Source: an uncultured Chloroflexia bacterium (lineage in GTDB: Bacteria; Chloroflexota; Limnocylindria; Limnocylindrales; CSP1-4). Taken from it: a stretch of DNA of 64,000 nt. Below the pieces are notes generated by a model, which did not search any database, was not told where the DNA came from, and saw only the letters and a list, made by a program, of their open reading frames with translations. The first letter of the stretch is position 1, and each line of letters opens with the position of its first letter. The translations under genes were made by a program, and so were the position numbers. Location: positions 72,747-136,746 of the forward strand of contig CAWBMK010000007.1 in NCBI GenBank assembly GCA_963789905.1, given 5' to 3'. Below, in pieces: positions 7,310 to 38,315 of the stretch.

Positions 7310-7310
7310 G

Positions 7311-7829: not shown

Positions 7830-7867
7830 GACTGGACACGGCCGAGGTCGGGCGTGCAGCTGTCATC

Positions 7868-8254
7868 GTGAATGCCCTGCGTGTCGCCGGCGCCATGTAC
7901 GTCGCTTTGGGTCTCGGCTTCGGGATCGGGATCGCGATCACGCTCGCGTACTACGCTCGCGACGGCGAGTTGCCGATGACGCCGTTCGGGTTCCGGTCGC
8001 TTGCCGGCGGCCCGTTCGAGAAGCTCAGTCCTGAACAGTTCGCTGTCCTGGGGTCGGCACTGGTGGCGGTCTGCGCCCTCGACACGATCGCGGGTACCTG
8101 GCTATGGCAAGGCAGACGCCGCGGCATCATGCTTGGGCTCGCCACGTCGGTGCCCAGCCTGCTGCTGGCCGTTGGATTTGCCCTGCCGATCCTGCTCATC
8201 GGGATCCTGGTCCGAACGGCCCTCGTCCTGGCTGGCCGGCGCGGCGCGGCCTGA
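7868..8254 (+). CDS. Hypothetical integral membrane protein
   Basis: 128 aa with 3-4 TM helices. Confidence 0.45.
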   Translation: MNALRVAGAMYVALGLGFGIGIAITLAYYARDGELPMTPFGFRSLAGGPFEKLSPEQFAVLGSALVAVCALDTIAGTWLWQGRRRGIMLGLATSVPSLLLAVGFALPILLIGILVRTALVLAGRRGAA

Positions 8255-8257
8255 CGA

Positions 8258-20208: not shown

Positions 20209-20457
20209 ATGTGCAGAAGCATCAAGCAGCTCCGCCGCCCCGAAGAGGCGGCCACGACCGGCGAGATCGAGGCCGCCGCCCGCCAGTTCGTGCGAAAGGT
20301 CAGCGGCTATCGCGTCCCATCTCGGGCGAACGAGGATGCTTTCGAGGCCGCGATCGCCGACGTCGCGGGCAGCGCTCAGCGACTGCTCGAGGCCATCGGC
20401 GTGTCCGTCGAGGAGGGGCCCGATCGCTGGGTCCCATCGGCCGCTCGGGCTCGATGA
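20209..20457 (+). CDS. DUF2277-like small protein
   Basis: MCRSIKQLRRPEEAATTGEIEAAARQFVRKVSGYRVPS... matches conserved small actinobacterial proteins. ATG at 20209. Confidence 0.5.
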   Translation: MCRSIKQLRRPEEAATTGEIEAAARQFVRKVSGYRVPSRANEDAFEAAIADVAGSAQRLLEAIGVSVEEGPDRWVPSAARAR

Positions 20458-20638
20458 CGATCGACGCCGTCGCGACCGCCTGGTGGTCGCGCGACGGGCT
20501 CGATGGCGGACCCCCGATGGCGCCCGTCGCCGAGGGCGACATCGTCGCTCTCCTGTGGGCAGGCGGGTACCTCCGGGCGATGTCGTCACGCCATTGCCTC
20601 CGCGAGCCCGCTGGGTCCATCTTCCCGAAGCGCTGACG

Positions 20639-21490
20639 ATGGTCGCCATCCCGCCGCGGCAGGCCGGCCGGGCGCAGGTCATACGCGTCCGCGGTCGGCG
20701 CGTCGAGGGCTTGGAGGATCGGCTGGCCGGCGAGGAACCGCTCGAGATCCGGGCGGCCGGCCCGGATCAGGAGAGTGTCGCCGTCGCTGTCACGATGCGG
20801 ACGCCAGGCAACGAGGCCGAGCTCGCGGTCGGATTCCTGCGGACCGAGGGCCTCATCGACGGACCTGCAGATGTCGCGGACATCAGCTTCGGCGACCCGT
20901 CTCGAGACGCTCAACCGGATGACACGGTGCTCGTTCACCTGACCCGACCCTTCGATGCGTCGGTCGTCGCCGAGCGACACTTTATCGCCACGGCATCGTG
21001 CGGGATCTGCGGCAAGGCCTCGATCGACGAGATCGCCGTCCGGTGCGCCCCGATCCCTTCCGGGCCGATGGTCGATCAGGCGATCGTCCTCGCTCTCCCG
21101 GAGCGACTGCGCGAGGCACAGGCGGTCTTTGAAGCCACTGGTGGGCTTCACGCCGCGGCGCTGTTCACCCCGCAGGGCGAGCTCATTGCGGCCCGCGAGG
21201 ATATCGGCCGCCACAACGCCCTCGACAAGCTCATCGGCTCCCAGCTCATGGCGGGAGCCCTGCCGCTCCACGATCGGGTCGTGCTGCTGAGCGGTCGGAT
21301 CGGGTTCGAGCTCGTTCAGAAGGCGGCGGTCGCAGGTGTCCCGATCTTGTGCGCGGTCGGGGCGCCGTCGGATCTCGCGGTCGAGACGGGCCGGCGCCTC
21401 GGGGTCACCCTTGTCGGCTTCCTCCGCGGCGACGCGTTCAACGTTTACACCCACCCAGATCGGATCGCTCTCGGTGGTAACCCCGCATAA
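20639..21490 (+). CDS. fdhD: Formate dehydrogenase accessory sulfurtransferase FdhD
   Basis: CGICGK...GRHNALDKLIG, which are the FdhD catalytic Cys and signature. Start at MVAIPP (ATG 20639), immediately after an upstream small-ORF stop. Confidence 0.85.
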   Translation: MVAIPPRQAGRAQVIRVRGRRVEGLEDRLAGEEPLEIRAAGPDQESVAVAVTMRTPGNEAELAVGFLRTEGLIDGPADVADISFGDPSRDAQPDDTVLVHLTRPFDASVVAERHFIATASCGICGKASIDEIAVRCAPIPSGPMVDQAIVLALPERLREAQAVFEATGGLHAAALFTPQGELIAAREDIGRHNALDKLIGSQLMAGALPLHDRVVLLSGRIGFELVQKAAVAGVPILCAVGAPSDLAVETGRRLGVTLVGFLRGDAFNVYTHPDRIALGGNPA

Positions 21491-21715: not shown

Positions 21716-23035
21716 TCAGGCGGGGTGGAGCGCTCGCCACATGTCGATTGACCACTGCCAATCGCCGACATCCTGGAACGCGATCCGGATGGCGGCGCCG
21801 CGTCCACGGACGGCCACGTAGCCCTCGAGGACGCCGACCTCGACGCCCGAGCTGCCGTCGGTGCTGATCTTCGCCCGCCCGAGGATCGGTCCGTCCTGGC
21901 GGGTGATGATGTCGCGCCCCAGATGGGAGGCGACCTGGTCGAGGAAGTCCGAGGCCGGCATGGGCCCGCGATCCGTCCCGGTCACGACACCCGCCAGGGT
22001 GATCGTGCGGCCCGCGTCGCTGCCGGTCCATTCCTCGGCCGTCCGGACGTCGCTGAACGAACCGGGCAGAGGTAGCGCCCAGCCCTCGTGGACGATCGTC
22101 ACCTGCCCTCGCCGATAGCCGATCGGCTCTCTCTCGCCGCCCTCTGCGGCCGCCTTCGCGGCGCGTGCCTCGACGTCGGGCGCGACGGCGTCGTGGATGC
22201 CCCGGAGCTTGAGGAGCTCGCCCCACTCACGCCACGGCCATGGCAGCTTCGTGTCGAGAGCGACGCCGTGTTTCAGCGTCTGGAGGACCTCGTCCTGGAC
22301 CCGGCGCTCGGCCGGTGTCACCGGCCCCCGCCAGCGGACATCACACCACATGAGGCAGAGCGCCCTGTTGAGCATGTAGCGAGCGTCGGTCGCATCGGCC
22401 CACCAGGGCACGATGTCGATGGCCGTCGGGACCTCGCTGAGGGCGCGCTCGAGCCATCGATCGTCGCGCGGTCCGAGTGGCGTCGCGATGGCACCTGGGA
22501 CCTCGATCCGAAGGTCGGCCGGCAGGCCGATGAGCATCCCGCCGGCGCCGAGTCGTCGGGCGTCCCGGGCGCCGACGAGAGTTGAGCCGAGCCAGGCAAG
22601 GTGTGCCCGCTCGACCGTCGGCCGATCGACACTGACCTTGCCATCGACGATGGGATGGACGTCGCTCGTCGTCCACTCGAGATCGAGCTCGAGCGCCAAT
22701 CGCTCGGCGACGTGGGCGAGGAAGCGCTGGTAGCCCGGGCCGACGCCCGCCGTTTCACCCTCGAGGGCGATGATGCCCTCGTCGTCGGCGATCGCGACGA
22801 GCGGAGGAGCGACCGGGTGCAGCCCGACGGCGAGCCTCGACTCACCAGAGGCGAGCCGCGACGCTTCGGACGACCGAATGGTGTCCCCGTACTCGGCATC
22901 GAGCCATGCCTTCGCCTCCGCGAGCAGCTTCTCGCCGTCTCGAGGCTTGCGGGCGATGCCGCGCTTGGATCTCTGGATGCCGATGCCACGCTTGGACGCC
23001 TGGCCGCTGACGCGGAATGTGGTAGACGCGCTCAT
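21716..23035 (-). CDS. Conserved hypothetical protein (439 aa), co-directional and downstream of the formate dehydrogenase genes
   Basis: Long ORF with coding-like composition and no recognisable catalytic motif. The N-terminus has a duplicated SKRGIxxxR element. Confidence 0.5.
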   Translation of the reverse strand: MSASTTFRVSGQASKRGIGIQRSKRGIARKPRDGEKLLAEAKAWLDAEYGDTIRSSEASRLASGESRLAVGLHPVAPPLVAIADDEGIIALEGETAGVGPGYQRFLAHVAERLALELDLEWTTSDVHPIVDGKVSVDRPTVERAHLAWLGSTLVGARDARRLGAGGMLIGLPADLRIEVPGAIATPLGPRDDRWLERALSEVPTAIDIVPWWADATDARYMLNRALCLMWCDVRWRGPVTPAERRVQDEVLQTLKHGVALDTKLPWPWREWGELLKLRGIHDAVAPDVEARAAKAAAEGGEREPIGYRRGQVTIVHEGWALPLPGSFSDVRTAEEWTGSDAGRTITLAGVVTGTDRGPMPASDFLDQVASHLGRDIITRQDGPILGRAKISTDGSSGVEVGVLEGYVAVRGRGAAIRIAFQDVGDWQWSIDMWRALHPA

Positions 23036-23139: not shown

Positions 23140-24255
23140 TCAGGGCCCGCGGCCGCCTTCGACGAACTGCCATCCGAAGCGCCCTTTGATGCACAGGTGA
23201 CCGTCCGTCACCGAGTGGTCCATCGGCGAGGTCACCTTGACGATCCGGCCGTCCTGGGCGTGGAGCTCGAGGTTGCAGCCGACCCCGCAATAGGGACAGA
23301 TCGTCGTGGTCTCGGTCTGCGCGCTCTCGTCCCACGTGCCCGCTGCCCGCATCTCGTGCTCACGACTGAACATGAGCGCGCCCGTCGGACAGACGCCGAT
23401 GCAATTGCCGCAGTAGACGCAGGCCGAGTCGGGCAGTGGGACGGCCTGCTCGGTCGAGATTCGGGCGTCGAAGCCGCGCCCGGCGACGGCGATCGCGAAC
23501 GTGTTCTGGGCGTCGACCCCGCAGGCCTCGACGCACTTGTAGCAGAGGATGCACTTCGAGTAGTCGCGGACGTAAAGCTCGTTGTCGACCTTGACAGGCT
23601 GGGCGACCGTCGCCGCGACATCGCCGGCTGTGCCGTGGTGCTGGCCGGTGACGCGGCCGTCGCGCTCGCCGGCAGCCGTGGGCTCAGAAGCCTCGCCGTA
23701 CCGCGAGGGGTCGGCTCCATATCGCTCCATCCAGGCCGCGATGGAGCCGTCCGGCTCGCGTGGTCCGGCGAGCGAGAGGTCGACGGATGAGCCGAGGAAT
23801 TCGAGAACGACCTTGCGAGAGAGCGCGACGCGATCCGACTCGGTCTGGATCTCCATCCCCGGCTCGACCTTGCGGGAACAGGCGGGCACCAGAACGCGCG
23901 AGCCGGTCACCTCGACGACGCAGACGCGACAGACGTTGACCGGGGTGAGGTTCTCGAGGTAGCAGAGCGTCGGCAGATCGCCGCCCGTCACACGGACCGC
24001 CTCGAGGATCGTCGAGCCCTCGGGTACGGAGACGGCCCGGCCGTCGATCGTGACCTCGACCATCGCGGCGTGGTCCGGATGAGGGGCGAATGGCGCAAGC
24101 GGTGTACGGGGCTGGCCGACGAACCAGACCGGCATCTCGTCCCACCCATCCCTGGGTGTCGGTACCCAGTTGCCCGGCACCGGGCCGGCATGCTCCGGCT
24201 GGTCCTCGGGTCCGAGGTGCTCCAGGTGCTTGCGGGGCTCGCTGTGCTCGCTCAT
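23140..24255 (-). CDS. Formate dehydrogenase alpha subunit, N-terminal Fe-S module only (NuoG-like 2Fe-2S + 4Fe-4S domains + MopB N-terminal 4Fe-4S motif)
   Basis: 2Fe-2S ferredoxin fold (TLCYLENLTPVNVCRVC), two 4Fe-4S ferredoxin motifs (CILCYKCVEAC, CVYCGNCIGVCP) and the MopB FS0 motif CPYCGVGCN...GHLCIKGRFGW. It then ends. The ATG at 24255 overlaps the stop of the upstream gene as ATGA. Confidence 0.8.
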   Translation of the reverse strand: MSEHSEPRKHLEHLGPEDQPEHAGPVPGNWVPTPRDGWDEMPVWFVGQPRTPLAPFAPHPDHAAMVEVTIDGRAVSVPEGSTILEAVRVTGGDLPTLCYLENLTPVNVCRVCVVEVTGSRVLVPACSRKVEPGMEIQTESDRVALSRKVVLEFLGSSVDLSLAGPREPDGSIAAWMERYGADPSRYGEASEPTAAGERDGRVTGQHHGTAGDVAATVAQPVKVDNELYVRDYSKCILCYKCVEACGVDAQNTFAIAVAGRGFDARISTEQAVPLPDSACVYCGNCIGVCPTGALMFSREHEMRAAGTWDESAQTETTTICPYCGVGCNLELHAQDGRIVKVTSPMDHSVTDGHLCIKGRFGWQFVEGGRGP

Positions 24256-26123
24256 GCCACGACCATGCCTTCGCGGACAGCCGATTCGATGGCCGCCGAT
24301 GCCGTCTGGCCCAGGCCGCAGATCGAGGCGTCGCGCATCGTCTGGCCGATCTCCGCGAGAAGGCGCATATCCGAAGCCCGGTCGCCGATGGGCAGGTCGG
24401 CCAGCAGCCGGGCCAGCAGCTCCTCCTGGCGGACCGTGCCGACCCGGCAGGGCACGCATTGGCCACACGATTCGTCGCGGAAGAACGCTGCGATCCGACG
24501 GAGTGCGTCGAGGATGTCGGCGCGCTCGTCATACACCAGGATCACGCCGGAGCCGAGGGACGCCCCGACGGCTCGCGTGCCCTCGAACGTCAGCGGCAGG
24601 TCGAGGTTGTCGGGGCCGACGAACGTTCCGGCCGCTCCGCCCAGGAGGACCGCCTGCAGCGCCCGGCCATTCGCGACGCCGCCGGCCATGGCGATGAGGT
24701 CGCCGAGGGTCGCCCCGAACGGGACCTCGAAGAGGCCCGGTCGAGCGACGTTGCCGGACAGGCAGAAGAGCTTGACCCCGCTCGATCCGGCCGTCCCGCG
24801 GCGCGCGTATGCCGCCCCACCCTCGCGCATGATCAGGGGCACGTTGACGAGCGTCTCGACGTTGTTGATGACCGTCGGTTTGCCGAAGAGGCCGTGAGTC
24901 ACCGGGAACGGCGGCTTGTTGCGGGGCTCACCGCGCCTGCCCTCGATCGAGTTGAAGAGCGCGGTTTCCTCGCCGCAGATGTAGGCGCCGGCGCCGCGCC
25001 GGATCTCGATGTCGAAGGCGAACCCTGCGCCCAGGACGTCCGCTCCGAGCAGTCCAGCGGTACGGCAGGCGTCGATTGCGGCCGCCATCGTAGCGGTCGC
25101 GGCCGGGTACTCCGCACGGATGTAGATGTAGCCGTGCTCCGACCCAGTGGCGAACGCGCCGATCGTCATTCCCTCGATGACGGCGAACGGGTCGCCCTCC
25201 ATGAGCAGGCGATCCTTGAACGTCCCGGGCTCCGACTCGTCGGCGTTGCAGACGAGGTAGTGCGGGGTGTCGGGCTGACCTGCCACCGCCTCCCACTTGC
25301 GACCTGTCGGAAAGGCCGCCCCGCCTCGCCCGACGAGGTGCGAGGTCGTGACCTCTGCGATCGTCGCCGCCGTGCCGAGCTCAATGGCCCGTTGGAGCCC
25401 GGCGTAGCCGCCATCTTGCCGGTAGGCGTCGAGGTCGGTCGGCCCGATGCGTCCGATGCGGCCGATGAGGCGTAGATCGGCCGCGGCCGCCGAGTCGACC
25501 TGCGGCACCGATGCACGCAGCTCGTCTCGCGTCGGGAGGGCGTCGCCTGGAACGAGCTCGAGGCGGCGGATGATGCCCGCCGCGTCGATCGGCCCGGCCA
25601 CCAGCTCAACGGCTTCCTCGCCGGCGATCGTGAACAGGGCGACCGGGGCACGCTCGCACATCCCGAGGCAGGGGCTGCGATGCCACGTCACGGCTCCTTC
25701 GTGGACCGGCTGGCCCTCTGGGCCGAGCGAACGCTCCAGCGCGGCCGCAGTCTCCTCGGCGCCGGCCAACCGACAGGCCAGATCGTCGCACACATGGGCC
25801 ACGGTCGGCGGCTGGGGAGTCGTCGAGAGGAGGGCGTAGAAGGTGGCCACGCCGTAGGCCTCGGCTGGCGGGACCGACAGCCGCTTGCAGATGTAGTTGA
25901 GGGCGGGCTGGCTGATATGGCCGAAGCGAGCCTGGATCGCGCGAAGGGCTGGCAGCAGCAGGTCGCGGCGCGCCCGTGCCGCGTGACCGCCGTAGGCGAC
26001 GTGCCCTTCCGTGCGCGCATCGCGCTGACCGCCCACCCAGCCACTCTCGGGCGGTCCGACGACGGCGTCGACGGCTGCCCGCTCGGCGGCCGAGGCGAGC
26101 GGCCCGATGACGTGGAGATCCAT
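24252..26123 (-). CDS. NAD(+)-dependent formate dehydrogenase beta/gamma fusion (NuoE-like 2Fe-2S domain fused to NuoF-like NADH/FMN/4Fe-4S subunit)
   Basis: N-terminal NuoE-like motifs (ALNYICKRLSVPPAEAYGVATFYALL...CDDLAC...CLGMCERAP). Then NuoF motifs (GRGGAAFPTGRKWE, FMN site, C-terminal CGQCVPCR 4Fe-4S). Confidence 0.85.
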   Translation of the reverse strand: MDLHVIGPLASAAERAAVDAVVGPPESGWVGGQRDARTEGHVAYGGHAARARRDLLLPALRAIQARFGHISQPALNYICKRLSVPPAEAYGVATFYALLSTTPQPPTVAHVCDDLACRLAGAEETAAALERSLGPEGQPVHEGAVTWHRSPCLGMCERAPVALFTIAGEEAVELVAGPIDAAGIIRRLELVPGDALPTRDELRASVPQVDSAAAADLRLIGRIGRIGPTDLDAYRQDGGYAGLQRAIELGTAATIAEVTTSHLVGRGGAAFPTGRKWEAVAGQPDTPHYLVCNADESEPGTFKDRLLMEGDPFAVIEGMTIGAFATGSEHGYIYIRAEYPAATATMAAAIDACRTAGLLGADVLGAGFAFDIEIRRGAGAYICGEETALFNSIEGRRGEPRNKPPFPVTHGLFGKPTVINNVETLVNVPLIMREGGAAYARRGTAGSSGVKLFCLSGNVARPGLFEVPFGATLGDLIAMAGGVANGRALQAVLLGGAAGTFVGPDNLDLPLTFEGTRAVGASLGSGVILVYDERADILDALRRIAAFFRDESCGQCVPCRVGTVRQEELLARLLADLPIGDRASDMRLLAEIGQTMRDASICGLGQTASAAIESAVREGMVVA

Positions 26124-26154: not shown

Positions 26155-27267
26155 TCAGATGAACTGGCTGAGGGCTCGCTGGAGGAGGAACAGGCCGATC
26201 GGCAGGACGATCGCCGACACGAGGGCTCCGAGGGTGCCCGGCCGCCACGGCAGTGTCGGGAGCCTGTCGACGAGGTCGCGCTCCATCACGAGGACGCCTA
26301 GCGCATCGTGCATCCCGGCCGCCGCCGTCATATCACCTCGGTCAACCGCCGCGTGGATCGCCGCGATCGTCGCCTCGACCCGCAGTCCCACCTCGCCCTG
26401 GAGTCGCCGCTTCTCAGCGATGATCCGCTTCTGCATTCCACGGAGCGGCAGAACGAATACGGCCATAGCGGCCACGATACCGCCGCCGAGGTACAAGAAG
26501 AAGAACACGGCTCCCAGGCTCGTCGACAGCAACCCGAGAGTCAGGAAGGTTGGAAGAATGAAGACGAGGGCGATAACGATGGCCGTCCTCGACGTCAGGA
26601 TCGAGAAGGCATACAGCGGTGCGGGCCGAAAGAGATCCACGCGGGTAGCTCGCGAGTGTGTCCGGCCCACCTCTCGAAGCTGACGGAACGAGTGGAGGAC
26701 GAGGACCAGGATGAGGCTTCCGAAAAAGACCTCGCTCACATACCTGAACAGCATGCCAAGCGGCGACAAACCGACGACCTGGGAACCGACCGGATCGGCG
26801 AGGTAGTAGATCGGCGTCGTAATAGCCGTGAAGAGGAGGAGGGCCGCGGCTGGGCGGGCTGGAGCAACGGTCAGCACGTAGCGAAGGCGCGCGACCTCCG
26901 CATCGGTCGCAGCGAGTACCGGCCTGAACGTGTCGAGGGCGGTCCCTGCGATATCCGCGAGATAGCCCATCAGCCAGAGTGTCAGGGGCAGGAAGACGGC
27001 CCAGAACGCTTGTCCAGCAAGATAGACCGGGTCGCTGTTGCTCTGGAGGCCGGACGGGCCCAGCAAGCTCAGAACCACCGAGATCGCCGCGATGGCGATG
27101 TAAGCGAGCCACGTGGGGCCGGGCAGCCGCTCGATCCAGTTGATGAGCAGGTTCACCCAGCTCGGCCCGTACGGCCGCTCGTCGCCCGAAAGATGCTGGC
27201 TCGTCGCGGTCGCTGCCGTGCTGGACCCGGTCGCGAAGTCGGTGGCCGATGAGGCCTCGGTCGCCAT
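26155..27267 (-). CDS. Polytopic integral membrane protein of unknown function, embedded in the formate dehydrogenase operon
   Basis: 370 aa with about 9-10 hydrophobic helices. GC content is visibly lower than in the flanking genes. Confidence 0.55.
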   Translation of the reverse strand: MATEASSATDFATGSSTAATATSQHLSGDERPYGPSWVNLLINWIERLPGPTWLAYIAIAAISVVLSLLGPSGLQSNSDPVYLAGQAFWAVFLPLTLWLMGYLADIAGTALDTFRPVLAATDAEVARLRYVLTVAPARPAAALLLFTAITTPIYYLADPVGSQVVGLSPLGMLFRYVSEVFFGSLILVLVLHSFRQLREVGRTHSRATRVDLFRPAPLYAFSILTSRTAIVIALVFILPTFLTLGLLSTSLGAVFFFLYLGGGIVAAMAVFVLPLRGMQKRIIAEKRRLQGEVGLRVEATIAAIHAAVDRGDMTAAAGMHDALGVLVMERDLVDRLPTLPWRPGTLGALVSAIVLPIGLFLLQRALSQFI

Positions 27268-27285
27268 CGCGGGCGATCGTAGCAG

Positions 27286-29199
27286 TCAGGCGACAGGTGT
27301 CGAGAGCTTCTCGATGCGGATGGCGGTCGCCTTGAACTCGGCCGTTCCCGACTTCGGGTCGGTGGCGTCGATCGTCAGGAGGTTCGTCGCCACGTCGTCC
27401 TGGAAGTGCAGGGTCATGAATGTGAGACCTGGCCGCAGGGATTCATCGATCCTGATGGGGACATTCAGCTCGCCCCGGCGTGAGCGGACATGAACGACCT
27501 CCCCGTCGCTGAGGTCATACGTCAGCGCGTCCTCGGGGCTGATGTCGAGCGATTCGCCTCGCCGCAGCGGCGATGTGTAGCCGGCCGTCTGGACGCCGGT
27601 GTTGAAGGAGTCGAGTCGCCGGCCGGTGGTGAGGCGGATCGGGAACTCGTCGGTCAGCCGATCGACCGGCGGATCGTGTTCGACGGGCATGAACGGTGCC
27701 GGAGCGCCGACGCGCGGTTGTGCCCACAGCCGGGAGTGGATGTACAGCTCGCCCGGGTGGGTCTCGTCCCAGCACGGCCAATGGATGCCGCCGAGCTCGT
27801 CGAGGCGTCGGTAGCTCATCCCGGCGTGGACCGGGGAGAGCGATCGGACCTCGTCCCAGACCCTTTCTGCGACCGGCTCGCCCCAGTCGTGGCCCATCCG
27901 GCGGGCGACCTCGAACACGATCCAGAGGTCATCGCGTGCCTCGCCCGGCGGGTCGATCGCCTTGCGCACCCGCTGGACCCGTCGCTCGCTGCTGGTCACC
28001 GTCCCCTCGGTCTCGGCGAACGAGGCTGCCGACGGCAGGACGACATCGGCCAGCGCGGCCGTCTTGGTCAGGAACAGGTCCTGGACGACGAGGGCCTCGA
28101 GACCGCCAAGGAGCTCGATTGCCGTGGCCTGGTCCGCCTCCGACTGGACCGGGTTCTCGCCGACGCAGTAGATCGCCCGGACCTCGCCGGTCTGCATGCC
28201 GTGGAACATCGCCGATAACGAGCGACCCCGGCGCGGCGGGATCGTCACGCCCCAGGCCGCCTCGAATTTCGCTCGCGCGGCGTCGTTCTCGACGTGCTGG
28301 AAGCCGGGCAGCCGGTCTGGCAGGGCGCCCATGTCGCCGCCCCCCTGGACGTTGTTCTGGCCGCGCAGCGGCTGCAGACCGCTTCCGTAGCGGCCGACGT
28401 GACCGGTCAGCAGCGACAACGAGATCAGGGCCAGGACGTTGTCGACCGCGTTGTGATGCTCGGTGATGCCCAGGGTCCAGCAGAGCTGGGCGGACTTGGC
28501 CGTCGCATACGCGTGCGCCAACTGGCGGATCGCTTCAGCGGGCACGCCCGTCTCGCGCTCCGCGTACTCAAGGGTGTACTTCTCGACGCCCTGGCGGTAG
28601 AGGTCGAAGCCGATCGTCGCGTTGTCGATGAACGCCCGGTTCTCGAGGCCGGCGGCGATGATCTCGCGGCCCACCGCGTTGGCCAGGGCGATGTCCGAAC
28701 CCACGTCCAGGCCGAGCCACAGGTCGGCCCACTCCGCGCTTGCCGTCCGGCGCGGATCGACCGCATACAGGCGAGCCCCGTTGTGGATCCCCTTGAGGAC
28801 ATGGTGGAAGAAGATGGGGTGAGCTTCGCGAGCGTTGCTACCCCACAAGATGATGAGGTCGGTCTCCTCGACCTCCCGGTATGAGCTGGTCCCGCCGCCA
28901 GCCCCGAACACGGTCGCCAGACCGGCGACAGAGGGTGCGTGTCAGGTGCGGTTGCAGCTGTCGATGTTGTTGCTGCCGATGACCGCGCGGCCGAACTTCT
29001 GCGTCGCGAAGTTCAGCTCGTTGGTGGCCTTCGAGCAGCTGAAGAGCCCGAACGCTCCGGGTCCGTGCCGGTCCACGACGCTCGAGAAGAGCTCCGCGGT
29101 CCGGTCCAGGGCCTCGGCCCAGCTCGCCCGCCGGAGATCGCCGGTCTTGCCGCCGACTCTGACGAGCGGGTGGGTGAGTCGGGCATAGGCCTGTGCCAT
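27286..29199 (-). CDS. fdhA: Formate dehydrogenase alpha subunit, catalytic molybdopterin (MopB) portion; selenocysteine-containing (in-frame TGA at 28942-28944)
   Basis: Two ORF-track entries (28942..29670 and 27286..28911) are in the same frame, separated only by TGA. Reading through gives ...GSNNIDSCNRT-U-HAPSVAGLATVFGAGGG..., matching E. coli FdhF ...GTNNVDCCARV-U-HGPSVAGL. Start at MAQAYARLTHPLV (ATG 29197-29199, GAGGA RBS). Confidence 0.85.
28913..28929 (-). other. SECIS-like hairpin downstream of the Sec UGA
   Basis: mRNA GUCGCC-GGUCU-GGCGAC is a perfect 6-bp stem with a GGUC-containing apical loop, starting 12 nt after the UGA, as in E. coli fdhF. Confidence 0.5.
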
Positions 29200-29322: not shown

Positions 29323-29574
29323 ATGCCGCTCTACCTCGATACACATCACCACGTCGAGGGCCTGACAGCCGAGGCGGTCGCCGGTGCCCATGCCGCCGAT
29401 CTCGGAGTCCAGGGGAAATACGACGTGCGCTACCTGCGGTACTGGTTCGATGAGGCGACCGGCAAGGTCTTCTGCCTCGTCGAGGCGCCCTCCGCGGAAG
29501 CTGCCATCCAGGTCCATCGCGAGGCTCACGGCCTCCTGGCGGACGAGATCACCGAGGTCAGAGAGGGGATCTGA
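29323..29574 (+). CDS. DUF4242 (SCO4226-like) small protein
   Basis: 83 aa MPLYLDTHHHVEGLTAEAVAGAHAADL...RYLRYWFDEATGKVFCLVEAPSAEAA. ATG 29323 with a GGAAGG RBS. Divergent from fdhA. Confidence 0.6.
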   Translation: MPLYLDTHHHVEGLTAEAVAGAHAADLGVQGKYDVRYLRYWFDEATGKVFCLVEAPSAEAAIQVHREAHGLLADEITEVREGI

Positions 29575-32332
29575 CCTCCAGGTCGACCGCGGGCGCGAGA
29601 AGGGCGATCGCCTCATCGAGCCCGGTCGACAGTCCGCCCTCCCAGGCAACGCCGAATGCCGCCGCGCCAAGGCTCTCGGTGAGGTCGGCGACTAGCCGAT
29701 CGTGTTCGGCCCGCGCGCCGACCTGGCGGGTTGCGCCGATCTCGAGGCGAAGCGCCTCGGCCGCGCCGAGGAGTCGTGCAGCCAGTCGCGGGTCAGTGGC
29801 CGCCACCGTTATCGCCAGTCGCTCGAGCGCCCTGACCGAGCCGGGTTTGTCGCCCAGCGTGCGCCGCATCTCGAGGCCCTCGCGATGCAGGGCGATCGCC
29901 TGTGTCGTCTCGCCGCGACTTGCCTCCGCATCGGCCAGGAGCATGAGCATCCGAGCGACACCGCGGCCGTCACCGATCGACCTATAGAGCGTCAGCGCTC
30001 GGGTGAGGATCTCTTCAGCCGCCGCAGGATCGCCGCTCGCGTGGACTGTCGCCCCCTGTTGGCCAAGGGCGTGCGCCTCGCCCCAGATGTCGCCCTCAGC
30101 ACGGAAGATCTCGGCCGCCTCCTCGAACGACCGAAACGCGCCCTCGTGGTCGCCCCGTCCCTCGGCAACACTGGCGAGATTCATGAGCTGGAAGGCCACG
30201 CCACGCCAATCGGACACCGACCGGGCGAGAGCGAGACCTTCCTCGTACAGCGCGACGGCGCGTTCCGAGTCGCCTTGCTGGACGCACAGGCTCGCAAGAT
30301 TGCTGAGGGCGGACGCGATGGCCAGGGGATTGCCGATCGCGCGCTGGGTGTCGACGCAGCGCTCCAGATAACGCATCGCCCCCTGTGGGTCGCCCCGCAG
30401 CCCCGCGATGACGGCCGCTCCCGTCAGTGCCGTGGCCCGCACCTCGCTGGCATCGCCCGCGTCGGCTTCCACTGCCCTGGCAAGCCAGGTGCTCGCTTCG
30501 GCGAGGGCGCCCCGGATCTCCCAATAGCGCCACAGGCCGGCCGCCATTCGAACCAGCGCATCACCCGACGATGGGTCAGACGCGCTCCAGTCGAGCGCCG
30601 CCCCGAGATTGGCACGCTCGCGATCGAACAAAGCGATCCACTCGGTCGGATCTGAGCCCCGGAAGAAGTCCGGCTTCGCTCGTTCGACGAGCGCGACGTA
30701 CCAGTCGCGGTGCCGACTCTGCGCCTCGCCGGCCTCCTCGCTCTCGACGAGCTTCTCGCGGGCGTATTCCCGAACAGTCTCGAGGAGTCGGTATCGGCCG
30801 CCGCCGCTCTCGACGTCAAGGATGACGAGCGACTTGTCGACAAGCCTGGACAGCAGATCCAGCACCTCGTGCGACTCGATGTCGGCGCCTCGACAGACGG
30901 CCTCGGCAGCTTCGAGCGTGAACGAACCCGCGAAAACGGCAAGCCGGCGCAGGATCGCCTTCTCCTGATCCGTCAGCAGGTCGTGGCTCCAATCCATGGC
31001 GGCACGGAGCGTTTGCTGGCGCTGAAGCGCGATCCTGCTGCCTCCGGTCAGGAGGCGGAACCGGTCATCCAGCCGGGCTGCGATCTGGTCGACGGGCATC
31101 GAGCGCACCCGAGCCGCCGCAAGCTCGAGCGCCAACGGGATGCCATCGAGGCTGCGGCAGATGCGCACGACGGCCGACGCACTCCGTTGGTCGATGGTGA
31201 ACGTGGGGTCGACGACCCGGGCACGATCGGCGAACAGGGCGACGGCCTCGTAGGTGAGCAGATTTCCGCTTGGCTGCCGGTCTGCGGCGTCAGGCAGCGA
31301 TAGCGACGGGACCCGATAGATCGTCTCGCCTGGGATGCCGAACGCCTCGCGGCTGGTGGCGATGATGCGGAGGTTCGGGCAGCCGCGCAGGAGCGCGTCG
31401 GCCAGCCGGGCCGCGGCGTCGACGAGGTGCTCGCAGTCGTCGAGGACGAGGAGGGTCGTCCGCGGCCGAAGATGGCTGAGGATCGAATTGATCGGCGCCG
31501 CGCCCGGTGGAGTGGCGATGCCAACGCTCGTCGCTACAGCTTGGGGGACGAGGCTCGGGTCGGTGATCGTGCCGAGCTCGACGACCCACACGCCATCCTG
31601 ATAGCGGTCGAGAAGATCGGCCGCCACATGTAGCGCCAGCCTCGTCTTCCCGATACCACCGGCTCCGGTCAGGGTCAGCATGGGCGACCCGGCAAGGAGC
31701 TCCCGGACCTGCACGGTCTCGGCGTCCCGGCCGACGAACCTCGTCAGGAGGCGTGGCAGATTGTTGGGAAGGGTGTCGAGTGACCGAAGGACGGGGAAGT
31801 CTTCGCGAAGTCCGTCTGCGGCGACCTGGTAGAGATGCTCGGGCCTGGCCAGGTCCTTGAGCCTGTGCTCGCCGAGGTCGATGAGTCGGACGCCATCCGG
31901 CACCCCGTGCCTGATGAGCTCGGCCGTCGTCTGGGAGATCAGGATCTGGCCTCCGTGACCCGCGGCCGCGATGCGCGCCGCTCGGTGGACGTCGATGCCG
32001 ACGTAGCCCGCAGCCGCCGTCTGCGGCTCGCCGGTATGGATACCCATCCGAACCAGGATCCTGACGTCGTCGGGCCAGGTGTGGGTTGCAACCGAACGTT
32101 GGGCCTCGAGCGTCGCCTCGAGAGCCGAGCGGGCACTCGCGAACGAATAGAAGAACCCGTCGCCGGCGACGTCGATCTCGCTCCCCTCATGGGCCCGGAA
32201 TGCCTGGCGCAGCAGGCGATTGTGGTCGTCGACGACTGCAGGCCAGCGATCCTTGAGGGCCGCCACGAGGGTCGTCGAGCCCTCGATGTCCGTGAAGAGA
32301 AACGTCACCGTCCCTTGGGAGTGGTCGGTCAT
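29558..32332 (-). CDS. Adenylate/guanylate cyclase domain - P-loop NTPase (NB-ARC/AAA) - TPR multi-domain regulator
   Basis: N-terminal class III cyclase motifs (VTFLFTDIEGST...GDGFFYSF). Then a Walker A GAGGIGKTRLA and C-terminal TPR repeats. ATG at 32330-32332 overlaps the selD stop. Confidence 0.8.
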   Translation of the reverse strand: MTDHSQGTVTFLFTDIEGSTTLVAALKDRWPAVVDDHNRLLRQAFRAHEGSEIDVAGDGFFYSFASARSALEATLEAQRSVATHTWPDDVRILVRMGIHTGEPQTAAAGYVGIDVHRAARIAAAGHGGQILISQTTAELIRHGVPDGVRLIDLGEHRLKDLARPEHLYQVAADGLREDFPVLRSLDTLPNNLPRLLTRFVGRDAETVQVRELLAGSPMLTLTGAGGIGKTRLALHVAADLLDRYQDGVWVVELGTITDPSLVPQAVATSVGIATPPGAAPINSILSHLRPRTTLLVLDDCEHLVDAAARLADALLRGCPNLRIIATSREAFGIPGETIYRVPSLSLPDAADRQPSGNLLTYEAVALFADRARVVDPTFTIDQRSASAVVRICRSLDGIPLALELAAARVRSMPVDQIAARLDDRFRLLTGGSRIALQRQQTLRAAMDWSHDLLTDQEKAILRRLAVFAGSFTLEAAEAVCRGADIESHEVLDLLSRLVDKSLVILDVESGGGRYRLLETVREYAREKLVESEEAGEAQSRHRDWYVALVERAKPDFFRGSDPTEWIALFDRERANLGAALDWSASDPSSGDALVRMAAGLWRYWEIRGALAEASTWLARAVEADAGDASEVRATALTGAAVIAGLRGDPQGAMRYLERCVDTQRAIGNPLAIASALSNLASLCVQQGDSERAVALYEEGLALARSVSDWRGVAFQLMNLASVAEGRGDHEGAFRSFEEAAEIFRAEGDIWGEAHALGQQGATVHASGDPAAAEEILTRALTLYRSIGDGRGVARMLMLLADAEASRGETTQAIALHREGLEMRRTLGDKPGSVRALERLAITVAATDPRLAARLLGAAEALRLEIGATRQVGARAEHDRLVADLTESLGAAAFGVAWEGGLSTGLDEAIALLAPAVDLEVRSPL

Positions 32333-33423
32333 CTCGTTGCCGCGATCAGGGCGATCCCTCGGCCGGTCTCGACGTGGCCGATCCACCAATGAGAGACGCC
32401 GCGGAAGGTGAGGTCCTGTCCAACGGCGTCGGCCGCGTCCTCCGGGACGGCCGCAAGGAGGCCGCCCGAGGTCTGCGGGTCGTGGGCGAGGACGACGCGT
32501 TCGGGGGGGACGTCCCGGTCGATCGTCACCGCATCGGCCACGGACCGGCGGTTATGGGCGGCACCCCCGGTCTCGACGCCGGCCCGCGCGTTGTCGAGCG
32601 CGCCGGCGAGGGCTGGCAGGCCGTCCGCCTCGATGACGAAGCGCGTCCGATTTCCGGCGCCGGCGTCGGTCCGGATCATCTCGGCGGCGTGGCCGAGCAG
32701 CCCGAAGCCGGTGACGTCGGTCGCGGCCCGGACGCCATGGGCCACGAGCACCTCCGAGGCCGCCCGGTTGAGGCGACGCATGGACTCGATGGCCCCGTCG
32801 AGGTCCTCGTCGGAGGTTCGACCCTGGCGCCGTCCGCTCACGAGGACGCCCGTGCCCAGGGGTTTCGTGAGCAGCAGGCGGTCTCCCGGTCGCGCGCCAC
32901 CCTTGCGCAGCAGACGGTCCGGATGGCCGGCGCCGACGACCGCCAAACCGTATTTTGGCTCCGGATCGCGGATCGTATGGCCACCGGCCAGGGTGCCCCC
33001 AGCCTCGCGGACGACGGAGGCCGCGCCATCGAAGATCGCGGCCATGGTCTCCCGGGGCAGATCCTCGGGCAGGGCGGCGATCGACAACGCGAACAGGACG
33101 CGGCCGCCCATGGCAAATATGTCGCTAACGGCGTTAGCCGCGGCGATCTCACCAAACGTCCGAGGGTCGTCGACGAGCGGTGGGAAGAAGTCGAGCGTCC
33201 CGATGATCGCCAGGTCGTCCGAGATGCGGTAGGCGGCGCCGTCATCGGGCGGATCCAGCCCGGCGATCATGTTTCGATCGCGATTCTCCCTATTCGTCGC
33301 ACCGAGCCCGGCGAGGGCCTCCGCGAGCAGATCGGCACCGAGCTTGGCCGCACATCCGCCGCAGTCCGTCAGGTCGGTGAGGCGGATGTCGATCGGTGTT
33401 GCGGGAGGCTCGAGCCGTGTCAT
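32329..33423 (-). CDS. selD: Selenide, water dikinase (selenophosphate synthetase), Cys-type
   Basis: IRLTDLTDCGGCAAKLGADLL...AISDIFAMGG...MTDVTGFGLLGH...DPQTSGGLL aligns along its full length with E. coli SelD. There is a Cys (not Sec) at the active-site position. Confidence 0.9.
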   Translation of the reverse strand: MTRLEPPATPIDIRLTDLTDCGGCAAKLGADLLAEALAGLGATNRENRDRNMIAGLDPPDDGAAYRISDDLAIIGTLDFFPPLVDDPRTFGEIAAANAVSDIFAMGGRVLFALSIAALPEDLPRETMAAIFDGAASVVREAGGTLAGGHTIRDPEPKYGLAVVGAGHPDRLLRKGGARPGDRLLLTKPLGTGVLVSGRRQGRTSDEDLDGAIESMRRLNRAASEVLVAHGVRAATDVTGFGLLGHAAEMIRTDAGAGNRTRFVIEADGLPALAGALDNARAGVETGGAAHNRRSVADAVTIDRDVPPERVVLAHDPQTSGGLLAAVPEDAADAVGQDLTFRGVSHWWIGHVETGRGIALIAATR

Positions 33424-34317: not shown

Positions 34318-34414
34318 GGGAGCGGAGGGGTCCCGGTGGGTCCCCCGGTCTTCAAAACCGGTGACGCCGCGCTCGGCGTGGCGTGGTGGGTTCGACTCCC
34401 ATGCGCTCCCGCCA
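34318..34414 (+). tRNA. selC: tRNA-Sec (anticodon UCA)
   Basis: 97 nt with an acceptor stem GGGAGCG/CGCUCCC. The D arm is a 6-bp stem GGGUCC/GGGUCC (two G-U pairs) with a 4-nt loop CGGU, the tRNA-Sec hallmark. Anticodon arm CCGGU-CUUCAAA-ACCGG with UCA at 34352-34354. Long variable arm ACGCCG-CGCU-CGGCGU. T arm GUGGG-UUCGACU-CCCAU. Discriminator G and encoded CCA. Confidence 0.75.
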
Positions 34415-35091: not shown

Positions 35092-36486
35092 GTGCGGTGT
35101 AACGTCCGCGAGATGGTCAGCGAGTCATCCCCGCGGCCCCCGGGCGTCGAGCGGTTGCTGAAGGCCGTGCGTCCGCTCGCCGGTCAGCGGGACGCCGACA
35201 TCCTCGTTCAGGCCACCCGGGCCGTCGTCGCGGACGAGCGCGATCGGCTTGCGCGGGGCGACGCACCCCGCCCGGTTGACGAACTCGCTGAGGCCGTTGT
35301 TGGTCGCCTTGACGCGGCGATGTCCGACGGATGGACGCCGATAATCAACGCTACCGGTGTGATCCTTCACACCAACCTGGGCCGGGCACCGTGGCCGGAC
35401 GCCGCCGTCGATGCCGCCCGGGCAGCGTCGGAGAATCTGTTCCTTGAGATGGACCGATCGTCGGGCCGGCGCGGGCCCCGATTCCGGGCTGCCGAGGAGC
35501 ACCTGATCGCCCTGACCGGGGCCGAGGATGCCCTCGTCACGAACAACAACGCGGCGGCAGTCGTGCTCGCCTGTCACCTTGCCGGTCGGCGTGGGATCGC
35601 CGTGGCCCGAGGCGAGCTCATCGAGATCGGCGGAGGAGTCCGGATCCCCGAGGTCGTTCGCCGCTCCGGTGCACGTCTCGTCGAGGTCGGCACGACCAAC
35701 AAGACCCGTGTGTCCGATTTCGAGGAGGTCCTCGCGGACGGTCGAGCTGCCGTCATCCTCCGGGTCCACGCCTCGAATTTCCGGATGAGTGGCTTCGTCG
35801 AAAGCCCCGACACGGCGGCGCTCGCCGCCATCGCGGCAGACCATGCCGCGATCGTCATCGACGACCTTGGCTCGGGTGCCCTGCTCGACACCGCGGCCTT
35901 CGGCCTGCCCCACGAACCGACGCCCATGGAACGGCTCCTGGCCGGGGCCGATCTCGTCACGTTCTCGGGCGACAAGCTCATCGGCGGGCCGCAGGCGGGC
36001 TTCATCGTCGGTCGGCGGGACCTCATCGCCCGGATCCGCAAGGACCCGCTGTCTCGGGCGATGCGACCGGACAAGGTGACGCTCGCCGCAGTCGCGGCCA
36101 CCCTGGCGATCTATGTCGCCGGAACGGCGACCCGGGAGATTCCAGTCTGGCGGATGATCGCCCAGTCGAGCGACGCGATCCGCGTCCGCGCGGAGTCGCT
36201 CTGTCGACGCCTCACGAAGCTCGGCCTTCCTGCCCTCCCGGTCCTTGTCGAGTCGACGATCGGCGGAGGCGCACTTCCTGAAGCGGTGCTTCCGTCGTGG
36301 GCGGTGGCTCTCTCGGACCCAAGCCCGGACCATCTGCTCGCGCGTCTCCGTGAGGGGATACCGGCCATCGTGGCGCGCATCGAGGCCGGCGCCGTCGTGC
36401 TCGACATGCGCACCGTCGACGAGCGGTGGGACGCCGAAGGTTCGCTGGCGGGTGCGCTGGTCCGCGCGCTGGGACGCGCTGGGTGA
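35092..36486 (+). CDS. selA: L-seryl-tRNA(Sec) selenium transferase
   Basis: VTNNNAAAVVLA...GELIEIGGGVRIPEV...FSGDKLIGGPQAGFIVGRRDLIARI aligns with E. coli SelA, including the PLP-Lys region (FSGDKL). Confidence 0.9.
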   Translation: MRCNVREMVSESSPRPPGVERLLKAVRPLAGQRDADILVQATRAVVADERDRLARGDAPRPVDELAEAVVGRLDAAMSDGWTPIINATGVILHTNLGRAPWPDAAVDAARAASENLFLEMDRSSGRRGPRFRAAEEHLIALTGAEDALVTNNNAAAVVLACHLAGRRGIAVARGELIEIGGGVRIPEVVRRSGARLVEVGTTNKTRVSDFEEVLADGRAAVILRVHASNFRMSGFVESPDTAALAAIAADHAAIVIDDLGSGALLDTAAFGLPHEPTPMERLLAGADLVTFSGDKLIGGPQAGFIVGRRDLIARIRKDPLSRAMRPDKVTLAAVAATLAIYVAGTATREIPVWRMIAQSSDAIRVRAESLCRRLTKLGLPALPVLVESTIGGGALPEAVLPSWAVALSDPSPDHLLARLREGIPAIVARIEAGAVVLDMRTVDERWDAEGSLAGALVRALGRAG

Positions 36487-38315
36487 CGGTCGTCATCGGG
36501 ACGGCCGGGCACATCGATCACGGCAAGACGACCCTGCTCCGGGCGCTCACCGGGATCGACGCCGATCGGCTCCCGGAGGAGAGGGCGCGGGGCATGACGA
36601 TCGATGTCGGTTATGCCCACATGACCCTCCCAGATGGCGACGTCCTCGACTTCGTCGACGTCCCAGGGCATGACCGGCTCATCGGAAACATGCTCGTCGG
36701 CGCCGCTGAGGTCGACGCCGCCCTGCTCGTGGTCGCGGCCGATGATGGGCCGCGGGCGCAGACGCATGAGCATCTCCGCCTCATCGATGCACTCGGCATC
36801 GACCACGGCATCGTCGTCATCACGAAGTCGGACCTCACCGGTCCCGGCGATCCGAGGACGATGTCGACCGAGCAGGCCGTCCGTGAGATCGTGGCCGGGA
36901 CAGGCCTGGCTCATTCACCCGTCATCGCCGTCTCTGCGTCGACTGGCAGTGGTCTCGACGAGTTGCGGACGGCACTTATCGATCTGCGCGATGCAGTCCG
37001 GCCCGAAGTCACCGCTCGAGAGGGCCCGGCGAGACTGGCCATCGATCGCATCTTCACGATCCGCGGCCACGGTGCGGTGGTGACCGGATCGCTACGCGGC
37101 GGCGCGTTCGAGACAGGCCAGGTCGTGCGGATCGAGCCCGGGCACAGGCGGGCACGAATCCGCGAGATCCAGAGCCGAAATGAGCCGACGAACCGGGCGA
37201 CCGGGGGTCGAACGGCGTTGAACCTTACGGGGGTCGATGCCGACCACTTGCATCGAGGCATGGTGATCGTCCCAGCGGACGACCTTCGCCTGGCCGTCAG
37301 CGATCGCCTGCTCGTGGTCCTCCGCTCACCTGCCCGGCGATCAACGGGCGCCTGGCGACTCCATCTCGGGACGGCCGAGGTCGGCGCCGAGCTCGGTCGT
37401 GGCCAGCGGGAGCACGCCGAGCTTGCGACCGGCGCCACGACGACGCTCCTGCGCCTCGATCGACCGGTCGCGATGGTGCTGGGCGATCGATTCGCCCTCC
37501 GGTCCAGCAGCGACACGACGGCCATCGGCGGCCGTGTCATCGATCCCGACCCGCCGCGTGGGCCGTCCCGCCGACGCGTCGACACGGATCGGCTCGCAGC
37601 GCTCGCGAACGCCGGGACCTGGGACGAACGCGACGCCGCCCGACTCGACCTGCATGGCTCGCTCGTCGCGGTCGCTGGGTCGGTCAGGCTGGCCCCGGAC
37701 GTCGAAGCCGGGATCGATGCGGCCGCCATCGCGGCAGTCCGCGACCATCACGTCAACGAGCCCGACTCGGCCGGACTCTCCGTCGCCGATATCCGGCCCC
37801 TGCTCGCCAGAGCGCTGCGTCGCCGGGTGACGATCGATGCCCGTGCGGCAGGCGCGGCGATCGAGGCGCGCCTTGGCGGTCTCGTCGCGACAGGGCGGCT
37901 GGCCCGGGACGGCGACCGCCTTCGCGACCCATCGCGCCCAGCCGGCACGCCGGCCGTCGTCCTCGCGGCCATGGATCGGCTGGAGACCCGGTTGGCGGTC
38001 CATTCCCCGCCGCCGCTCGCCGAGGCCGCGCGTGAGGCTGGCTGTCCGTCGGACGGTGTCAGGGCCCTTGAGAATGCCGGCCGCATCGTCCGACTCGAGC
38101 CGGATCTCGCCTATGCGTCATCGACATTCCGGGAGCTCGAAGCCCTGGCAGTGTCTATGGCCCGGGCGGGTCCGCTCACGCCGGCGGCGTACCGCGACGC
38201 CACGGACACCTCGCGACGCTACGTCATGGCCCTCCTCGAGGAGTTCGATCGACGGGGCGTGCTCCGGAGGACGGATGCCGGTCGCGTGCCGGGTCCGCGG
38301 GCCGCGGCGACGTGA
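36483..38315 (+). CDS. selB: Selenocysteine-specific translation elongation factor
   Basis: GTG start (GTGA overlap with the selA stop). VIGTAGHIDHGKTTLLRALTGIDADRLPEERARGMTIDVGYA...DVPGHDRL is a near-identical motif order to E. coli SelB. The C-terminal winged-helix region is present. Confidence 0.9.
   Translation: MTVVIGTAGHIDHGKTTLLRALTGIDADRLPEERARGMTIDVGYAHMTLPDGDVLDFVDVPGHDRLIGNMLVGAAEVDAALLVVAADDGPRAQTHEHLRLIDALGIDHGIVVITKSDLTGPGDPRTMSTEQAVREIVAGTGLAHSPVIAVSASTGSGLDELRTALIDLRDAVRPEVTAREGPARLAIDRIFTIRGHGAVVTGSLRGGAFETGQVVRIEPGHRRARIREIQSRNEPTNRATGGRTALNLTGVDADHLHRGMVIVPADDLRLAVSDRLLVVLRSPARRSTGAWRLHLGTAEVGAELGRGQREHAELATGATTTLLRLDRPVAMVLGDRFALRSSSDTTAIGGRVIDPDPPRGPSRRRVDTDRLAALANAGTWDERDAARLDLHGSLVAVAGSVRLAPDVEAGIDAAAIAAVRDHHVNEPDSAGLSVADIRPLLARALRRRVTIDARAAGAAIEARLGGLVATGRLARDGDRLRDPSRPAGTPAVVLAAMDRLETRLAVHSPPPLAEAAREAGCPSDGVRALENAGRIVRLEPDLAYASSTFRELEALAVSMARAGPLTPAAYRDATDTSRRYVMALLEEFDRRGVLRRTDAGRVPGPRAAAT

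Follow-up and report, generated by a model that had tools for sequence, protein, structure and literature searches.

Why should a gene for an integral membrane protein stand within the operon of a NAD-linked formate dehydrogenase (FDH), an enzyme that in its canonical soluble form, FdsABG, has no membrane subunit? The question is raised by a 64 000-nucleotide stretch of contig CAWBMK010000007.1 from an uncultured Chloroflexia bacterium (the whole stretch analysed, hereafter the window). Its gene MEMB (the name used here) encodes a membrane protein of 370 residues and lies between the catalytic half of a split FDH α-subunit gene (fdhA) and a fused nuoE–nuoF gene (nuoEF). An initial annotation of the window had remarked that a membrane subunit is foreign to canonical soluble NAD-dependent FDHs, and as a matter of established knowledge this stands. 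We conclude that one paralogue lineage of the family to which MEMB belongs is probably a stable accessory of the split, selenocysteine (Sec)-containing, NAD-linked FDH cluster.

The association is conserved well beyond this organism. In nine other loci a family member with 38–63% identity to MEMB stands beside the same split Sec-fdhA/nuoEF/Fe–S cluster, in three gene orders. The order fdhA–MEMB–…–nuoEF is found on the 16.5 kb contig of homologue P0004 and in loci L003, L004, L006 and L015 (60–63% identity), and also, with extra genes before nuoEF, in L016 and L017 (47–55%). In L020, fdhA and nuoEF enclose two tandem family copies (38 and 45% identity), and L012 (38%) has the order selD–MEMB–fdhA–nuoEF–FeS. 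The possibility raised in the initial annotation, that orthologous FDH loci never contain such a gene, is contradicted by these nine. Because the genes have stayed adjacent at identities as low as 38% and in three gene orders, a functional link between MEMB and FDH is likely and a recent passenger is strongly disfavoured. Within the cluster, the fdhA–MEMB side has changed less than the MEMB–nuoEF side. A neighbour-joining tree with a weakly supported backbone mixes FDH-linked with unlinked lineages, which implies an association that is either old or was gained repeatedly.

MEMB itself is a genuine gene that has been inherited vertically. The open reading frame (ORF) of the initial annotation is confirmed by translation from ATG to stop, together with its spacing: the ATG lies 18 nt past the stop of the catalytic half of fdhA (27286), and nuoEF starts (26123) 31 nt beyond MEMB. 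The GC contents of the three codon positions follow a coding pattern (GC3 0.82 > GC1 0.655 > GC2 0.485). Given gaps this short, MEMB is probably co-transcribed with fdhA and nuoEF. No Shine–Dalgarno sequence was found in the 18 nt gap, and one σ70-like site was found just upstream of MEMB against 0.4 expected in shuffled sequences; site and gap together suggest that an internal, near-leaderless MEMB transcript is possible. The cluster is set in housekeeping chromosome, with metH, citrate synthase, glucose-6-phosphate dehydrogenase (G6PD) and transketolase genes in the window.

The initial annotation had described MEMB as less GC-rich than its neighbours and as a possible horizontally acquired passenger. 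Composition was compared gene by gene over 33 coding-like ORFs of the window. The raw GC content of MEMB is indeed low (0.653–0.655, against 0.68–0.71 in the neighbours and 0.687 for the whole window), the second lowest among the 33 ORFs (z = −2.6), and a 400 nt sliding window goes down to 0.608 within the gene. The deficit is located at codon positions 1 and 2, with T at position 2 reaching 0.375 against ∼0.26 in the neighbours, and GC3 falls within the range of the window (0.78–0.90). When the codon usage of the window is applied to the amino acids of MEMB, a GC content of 0.665 is expected, which leaves a residual of −0.010 (z = −1.1); z is −0.9 for the difference between GC3 and its expectation and −1.2 for the log-likelihood of the synonymous codons. 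Hydrophobic amino acids account for about 70% of the dip and noise for the remainder. Two AT-rich runs that had been quoted as examples are present, but they are coding sequence on the minus strand, at 26503 and 26562, and encode FFFLYL and FILPT through Phe, Leu and Ile codons. The homologues range from 0.058 below to 0.031 above the GC content of their own loci, with a median of ∼0.012 below. Since the corrected composition and the codon usage of MEMB are indistinguishable from those of the rest of the window, horizontal transfer is not supported, and we rejected it after amino-acid-corrected GC, GC3 and codon likelihood had all proved ordinary. The observation of a low raw GC content therefore holds; the codon usage is normal, and the inference of a foreign passenger falls with it and with the presence of MEMB in the related FDH loci.

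No family could be named for MEMB at the outset, and this is borne out by the lack of a match in Pfam, NCBIfam, PADLOC or PHROGs. A family nevertheless exists and is large. A word-indexed search returned at least 126 homologues and an exhaustive search returned 1241 clusters at 50% identity, 893 of them at E ≤ 1e-10; the length is around 355 residues, and almost all fall within 340–370. No precomputed Pfam domain is present on any of the 1241. All family matches that carry an organism name are from Chloroflexota (Chloroflexia, Anaerolineae and Caldilineaceae). A profile search with a narrower alignment (A2) gave nine genome loci and three metagenome loci. Several genomes hold more than one family copy, either in tandem (L019 and L020) or a few genes apart. 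The tandem pairs are head to tail, at 6925–9077 inside the FDH cluster of L020 and at 6916–9089 outside any such cluster in L019, and one Anaerolineae contig has two copies (P0316 and P0336) four locus tags apart; a 360-residue neighbour in L022 is not detectable as a family member, so that no tandem pair is present there. Some longer homologues suggested domain fusions, which were rejected: the extra length of P0032 and P0116 comes from an over-extended start and from a frameshift. P0117, which JGI labels 'sensor histidine kinase', has no kinase domain or other Pfam support for that label, which was likewise rejected.

MEMB has seven hydrophobic segments by Kyte–Doolittle hydropathy, and an AlphaFold2 model computed from an alignment of 66 sequences (pLDDT 91.4, pTM 0.87) likewise contains seven transmembrane (TM) helices, in place of the nine or ten first proposed. 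In the model, an N-terminal helix (residues 37–46) is followed by TM1 (52–75), TM2 (80–117), a cytoplasmic helix (122–133), TM3 (137–157), TM4 (169–206, 38 residues), TM5 (215–244, 30 residues) and TM6 (250–309, 60 residues). The C-terminal part consists of a cytoplasmic helix (7a, residues 313–334), a ten-residue linker LPTxPWxPGT and a final TM helix (7b, residues 345–369). TM1 and TM3 are short (21–24 residues), and TM2, TM4 and above all TM6 reach into the cytoplasm. A second model, of the homologue P0238 (∼28% identical to MEMB; pLDDT 93.6), has an identical layout, including the split TM7. Lys and Arg residues number 4, 5 and 11 in the loops 109–138, 197–226 and 275–344 of MEMB, compared with 0, 1 and 0 in the loops between them; for the family (66 members) the counts are 3.3, 5.1 and 10.3 inside and 0.3, 0.4 and 0.2 outside. 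Because the positive charges are concentrated in alternate loops, the positive-inside rule predicts that the N-terminus lies inside and the C-terminus outside. On this topology the outside loops are only 4, 11 and 5 residues long, and the inside loops or extensions measure ∼19, 8 (plus helix extensions) and ∼70 residues.

Conservation is highest in the 7a–7b linker (0.75), in which Thr338, Pro340 and Trp341 are invariant or nearly so, and reaches 0.63 in the N-terminal motif of residues 31–52 (against 0.50 overall), 0.62 in intracellular loop 2 (IL2), 0.60 in TM7b and 0.56 in the TM6 extension, against 0.38–0.46 in the membrane parts of TM1–TM6. A 100° periodicity of conservation is significant in TM7a (p = 0.03) and TM7b (p = 0.011) and in no other helix. 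Further family motifs are FRPAL after TM2, DLFxPxPLYAFSxLTxRT between TM4 and TM5, FVxPLxGMHxRxxxEKxRL where TM6 exits into the cytoplasm and LPTWPWxPGT before the last helix; the TM7b consensus reads TLxxFxSAxxLPxxLFLxxRxLxRxx.

This layout recalls the superfamily of seven-transmembrane ion channels (7TMICs), of which thousands of bacterial and archaeal members were reported in 2023 from structure screens (Himmel, Moi & Benton; bioRxiv 10.1101/2023.08.30.555482). The same work gives the descriptive features of 7TMICs as seven TM helices, an N-in/C-out topology, short outer loops, long TM4–TM6 and a split TM7, with shorter TM4 and TM5 in prokaryotic members and conservation peaks in the intracellular TM4–5 and TM6–7a regions and in TM7b (bioRxiv 10.1101/2023.08.30.555482). 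In the insect gustatory receptor BmGr9, according to its structure paper, S1 and S3 are of bilayer length and S2, S4, S5, S6 and S7a build a cytoplasmic anchor. All five descriptive features are found in MEMB, the N-in/C-out topology as a prediction. The insect gustatory and odorant receptors (GRs and ORs) BmGr9, Gr43a, AgamOR28, Orco and MhOr5, and 7TMICs in general, share with MEMB the seven helices, the topology, the short TM1 and TM3 and the split TM7. The regions of highest conservation also agree (intracellular TM4–5, TM6–7a and TM7b), and TM4 and TM5 are short, as in the prokaryotic members (38 and 30 residues, against 52 and 53 in BmGr9). The conserved N-terminal segment of residues 31–52 is a possible counterpart of the 7TMIC TM0 segment. 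MEMB differs in being embedded in a redox-enzyme operon and, from the GRs, in lacking a conserved TYhhhhhQF motif.

Structure comparison points the same way. A sequence-profile search of the PDB with MEMB gave nothing meaningful, the best match being a designed protein (E = 0.64). A Foldseek search of the PDB with the MEMB model ranked BmGr9 first (8vc2_A; E = 0.095, probability 0.89, TM-score 0.30 over 378 aligned columns); four more BmGr9 entries have TM-scores of 0.27–0.33, and the other matches listed, G-protein-coupled receptors and ABC exporters among them, have TM-scores of at most 0.21. The P0238 model matches BmGr9 (0.29–0.31), AgamOR28 (0.29–0.30), Gr43a (0.27) and Drosophila mojavensis Gr43a (0.25), with nitric oxide reductase (4xyd, 0.25) as the sole unrelated PDB match at that level. 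Insect GR and OR chains are thus the best full-length PDB matches of both models, though weak ones, with TM-scores of 0.27–0.33 and non-significant E values. We consider it somewhat more probable than the contrary that the MEMB family belongs to the 7TMIC superfamily.

How such a protein might serve FDH can be outlined in conditional terms. MEMB may oligomerize through the conserved face of TM7a and TM7b into a channel-like assembly, which within the FDH operon would let a small solute connected with FDH turnover cross the membrane, or gate its crossing. The 7TMIC assembly is a tetramer, with a central pore lined by TM7b and anchored by TM7a; for such an assembly of MEMB the conserved faces of TM7a and TM7b are the one piece of indirect evidence. 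Because MEMB is the only membrane protein in the FDH cluster, and because no FNT-type channel such as FocA and no other obvious formate transporter was found among the larger window ORFs scanned, import of formate for the cytoplasmic FDH would be the simplest and most parsimonious candidate. Ligand-gated sensing of formate, CO2 or bicarbonate is an alternative in the same framework. The co-location of a membrane protein with a cytoplasmic formate-converting enzyme is shared with FocA and its FNT relatives, and because it recalls focA–pflB a role in substrate passage appears plausible. FNT proteins have six TM helices in an aquaporin-like fold and form pentamers; MEMB has seven helices, a different topology and no match to Form_Nir_trans, and no FNT structure occurs among the best 50 Foldseek matches of either model. 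In its entirety, our best explanation, put forward tentatively, takes MEMB for an oligomeric, 7TMIC-like channel that was recruited to serve FDH as an accessory, possibly by passing or sensing formate.

Several points weigh against this explanation. The pore motif TYhhhhhQF of S7b in GRs is absent from the family consensus; MEMB itself ends in SQFI, which is not conserved. None of 7tm_6, 7tm_7 and DUF3537 is among the best 25 of the 48 Pfam families obtained with the 66 members scanned. The characterized 7TMICs are cation channels and not anion channels. Finally, 11 of the 21 informative family loci have no FDH gene within 8–10 kb (L001/L007, L002/L010, L005/L008, L009, L013, L014, L018, L019, L021, L022 and L023) and their contexts share no common theme, so that the general function of the family is not FDH-specific. 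We regard a channel or formate function of MEMB as doubtful, and the combined reading of the family as a Chloroflexota branch of the 7TMICs, with the FDH-embedded paralogue as a formate-conducting or formate-/CO2-responsive channel working with the enzyme, as unlikely.

The main alternative, a membrane anchor as already suggested in the initial annotation, is that MEMB conducts nothing and is instead a tether or extra subunit, docking an FdhA/NuoEF complex that is soluble by itself to the membrane's cytoplasmic face through its conserved cytoplasmic helical bundle. Its place between the catalytic and diaphorase genes, at the tight spacing of a subunit gene (18 and 31 nt), would fit such a role, as would the adjacency to fdhA kept in all FDH-linked loci and the cytoplasmic position of its most conserved surface (IL1, IL2, the TM6 extension and TM7a); the unusual split of the FDH α-subunit may moreover reflect a non-canonical assembly. 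The known anchors NrfD/PsrC and FdnI resemble MEMB in being integral membrane proteins encoded together with an enzyme of the Mo/W-bisPGD type, but they have eight or more (NrfD) or four (FdnI) TM helices, and the invariant haem His pair is absent from MEMB; indeed, no His or Cys that could hold a cofactor is invariant in the family alignment. Neither Pfam nor NCBIfam gave a match of MEMB to NrfD/PsrC or FdnI at E ≤ 0.1, and neither anchor is among the best 50 Foldseek matches of either model, so that the similarity expected of an FDH or CISM anchor is missing from both kinds of search. The profile searches, which also covered formate channels, as the initial annotation had suggested, found nothing, and identification of MEMB as NrfD/PsrC, FdnI or FocA was rejected. 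Against a tether also stand the many family members, tandem pairs included, that are far from any FDH and the unrelated genes that separate MEMB from nuoEF in L006, L004 and L017. We regard a tether as improbable.

A second alternative places MEMB in an 'FDH maturation island', where it would import or sense something that the building of the enzyme requires (selenium, molybdate or tungstate) or signal the presence of substrate. It draws on the surroundings of the cluster, which include selD, tRNA-Sec, selA, selB, a MobA-like gene, a class-V aminotransferase gene and fdhD, and on L012, in which the family gene lies directly between selD and fdhA; the characterized 7TMIC relatives are, furthermore, ligand-gated sensors (BmGr9 structure paper). 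Pfam and NCBIfam, however, reveal no resemblance of MEMB to known transporters of Se, Mo or W, and in L020, L016 and L017 the family gene accompanies fdhA and nuoEF with no sel genes in view. A sensing role would also have to do without an output or regulatory domain, which MEMB lacks and which its long homologues, being miscalled starts or frameshifts, do not supply. This proposal is less probable again than a tether. A functionally unrelated passenger, whether acquired horizontally or a mobile paralogue that landed in the operon, is very improbable: the second-lowest raw GC content of 33 genes, the many unrelated contexts of a multi-copy family and the promoter-like site that could allow independent expression are outweighed by ordinary corrected GC, GC3 and codon usage, by a place beside fdhA kept to 38% identity and in three rearranged gene orders, and by the absence of any flanking transposase, integrase or repeat in gaps of only 18 and 31 nt.

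The enzyme that MEMB accompanies is itself unusual. Like FdsABG(D) of Cupriavidus and Rhodobacter, it combines a NuoE/NuoF-type diaphorase, NuoG-like Fe–S domains and a Mo/W-bisPGD domain, with FdhD encoded nearby. Unlike them, it has an α-subunit encoded in two pieces whose order is reversed, a NuoE–NuoF fusion, Sec in its active site and a membrane gene between the two α halves. Canonical FdsABG has a single α polypeptide and separate NuoF-like β and NuoE-like γ subunits; the window cluster does not have this organization, and its cofactor domains are all present. The split falls just past the MopB Fe4S4 domain, with the catalytic half first, the Fe–S half last and MEMB and nuoEF between them, and the same split and half order are found in L006, L012, L015 and L020. 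The ATG of fdhA (29199) is preceded by GAGGA and its frame reads through a UGA. A SECIS-like hairpin 12 nt past this codon is no more stable than those of shuffled sequences (z = −0.09); selD, tRNA-Sec, selA and selB all lie within 10 kb of it, and sel-gene homologues adjoin the MEMB–fdhA cluster in L012. The NuoE–NuoF fusion also matches NCBIfam nuoF_fam (1.7e-133). The Fe–S half starts either at ATG 24255, in an ATGA overlap with the nuoEF stop (24252–24255), or at ATG 24063; the former start adds an N-terminal extension of 64 residues that is not called in the relative on the P0004 contig. The coordinates are collected in Table 1.

Table 1. Features of MEMB and of the surrounding formate dehydrogenase and selenocysteine genes (window positions).
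Feature	Position	Strand	Basis
MEMB, CDS of a 370-residue seven-TM membrane protein	26155..27267	-	ORF and translation, ATG to stop
MEMB N-terminal motif RPYxPSWxDxLxxWxxRLPGPxW, residues 31–52	27112..27177	-	Conserved in alignment; short helix 37–46, LPGP before TM1
MEMB TM6 cytoplasmic extension, TM7a and LPTxPW linker, residues 274–344	26236..26448	-	AlphaFold2 model, anchor-domain-like helical hairpin; 11 Lys + Arg
MEMB TM7b, C-terminal TM helix, residues 345–369	26161..26235	-	AlphaFold2 model; conserved face T345, A352, P356, L359, L366
Candidate internal promoter, σ70-like, TCGACA-16-(TG)TACGAT	27276..27303	-	Ends 9 nt before MEMB ATG; weak evidence
fdhA, catalytic half (Mo/W-bisPGD domains)	27286..29199	-	Pfam Molybdopterin and Molydop_binding; NCBIfam Fdh-alpha, 5e-161
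fdhA UGA selenocysteine codon	28942..28944	-	Motif NRT-U-HAPSVAGL; sel genes and tRNA-Sec nearby
NuoE–NuoF fusion, diaphorase module (FMN, 2Fe-2S and 4Fe-4S sites)	24252..26123	-	Pfam 2Fe-2S_thioredx, Complex1_51K, SLBB, NADH_4Fe-4S
FdhA N-terminal Fe–S half (2Fe-2S, 2x 4Fe-4S, MopB Fe4S4)	23140..24255	-	Pfam Fer2_4, Fer4, Molybdop_Fe4S4
439-residue protein closing the cluster	21716..23035	-	No Pfam, NCBIfam, PADLOC or PHROG match
fdhD (sulfurtransferase, FDH maturation)	20336..21490	+	tblastn match with L004 and L006 genes annotated FdhD-NarQ; convergent with operon
selD	32329-33423	-	Translation
tRNA-Sec	34318-34410	+	Rfam, 74.4 bits
selA	35092-36486	+	Translation
selB	36426-38315	+	Translation

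A 447-residue equivalent of the 439-residue protein follows the Fe–S gene on the P0004 contig and in L015, and no equivalent is present in L006, L012 or L020. The start of the fdhD ORF is probably over-extended; fdhD occupies the same position on the P0004 contig. The MobA-like and class-V aminotransferase genes lie beyond the FDH cluster in the window. Directly upstream of fdhA and before selD, a protein of 943 residues with adenylate/guanylate cyclase and TPR domains is encoded on the minus strand (29558–32389) and may be a regulator of the cluster. Among the related loci, a GYD-domain gene lies between MEMB and nuoEF in L006 (3940–5806) and L004 (4170–4490), L006 has in addition an L-serine dehydratase gene in this interval, and L020 carries a PIN/PhD toxin–antitoxin pair between fdhA and the membrane genes. 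A second conserved neighbourhood is present in a sister clade (L001, L005 and L018; 51–57% identity), where the order is trypsin-like protease, amino-oxidase-family flavoprotein, membrane gene, metallophosphatase, GT4 glycosyltransferase, YggT, PCMT and YtxH.

Two results are new: a large unannotated membrane-protein family of the Chloroflexota with a 7TMIC-like architecture, and the conservation of one lineage of that family inside a split, Sec-dependent NAD-type FDH cluster. Our literature search found nothing relevant on membrane proteins in fds operons or on split Sec-FDHs of Chloroflexota and, in the papers searchable, no function or genomic context for any prokaryotic 7TMIC. Should the 7TMIC link fail, what is left is an unannotated membrane family that exceeds 1200 clusters at 50% identity and has a defined topology, defined motifs and one clear functional association. 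Were the combined reading true, with the family as a 7TMIC branch and MEMB as a channel for or responsive to formate or CO2, MEMB would be the first lead to function and genomic context for any prokaryotic 7TMIC and a membrane partner of a new kind for a 'soluble' NAD-linked FDH; the tandem pairs of L019 and L020 would then hint at channels that are heteromeric, like insect receptors. Demonstration of both the 7TMIC link and a channel role related to formate or CO2 would sharply raise the interest. An FDH-adjacent paralogue kept across deep divergence leads to a concrete hypothesis in which formate, CO2 or bicarbonate is the ligand or solute. For FDH biology, the finding means that a widespread enzyme of soil Chloroflexota departs from the textbook FdsABG, which bears on how these bacteria take up and oxidize formate.

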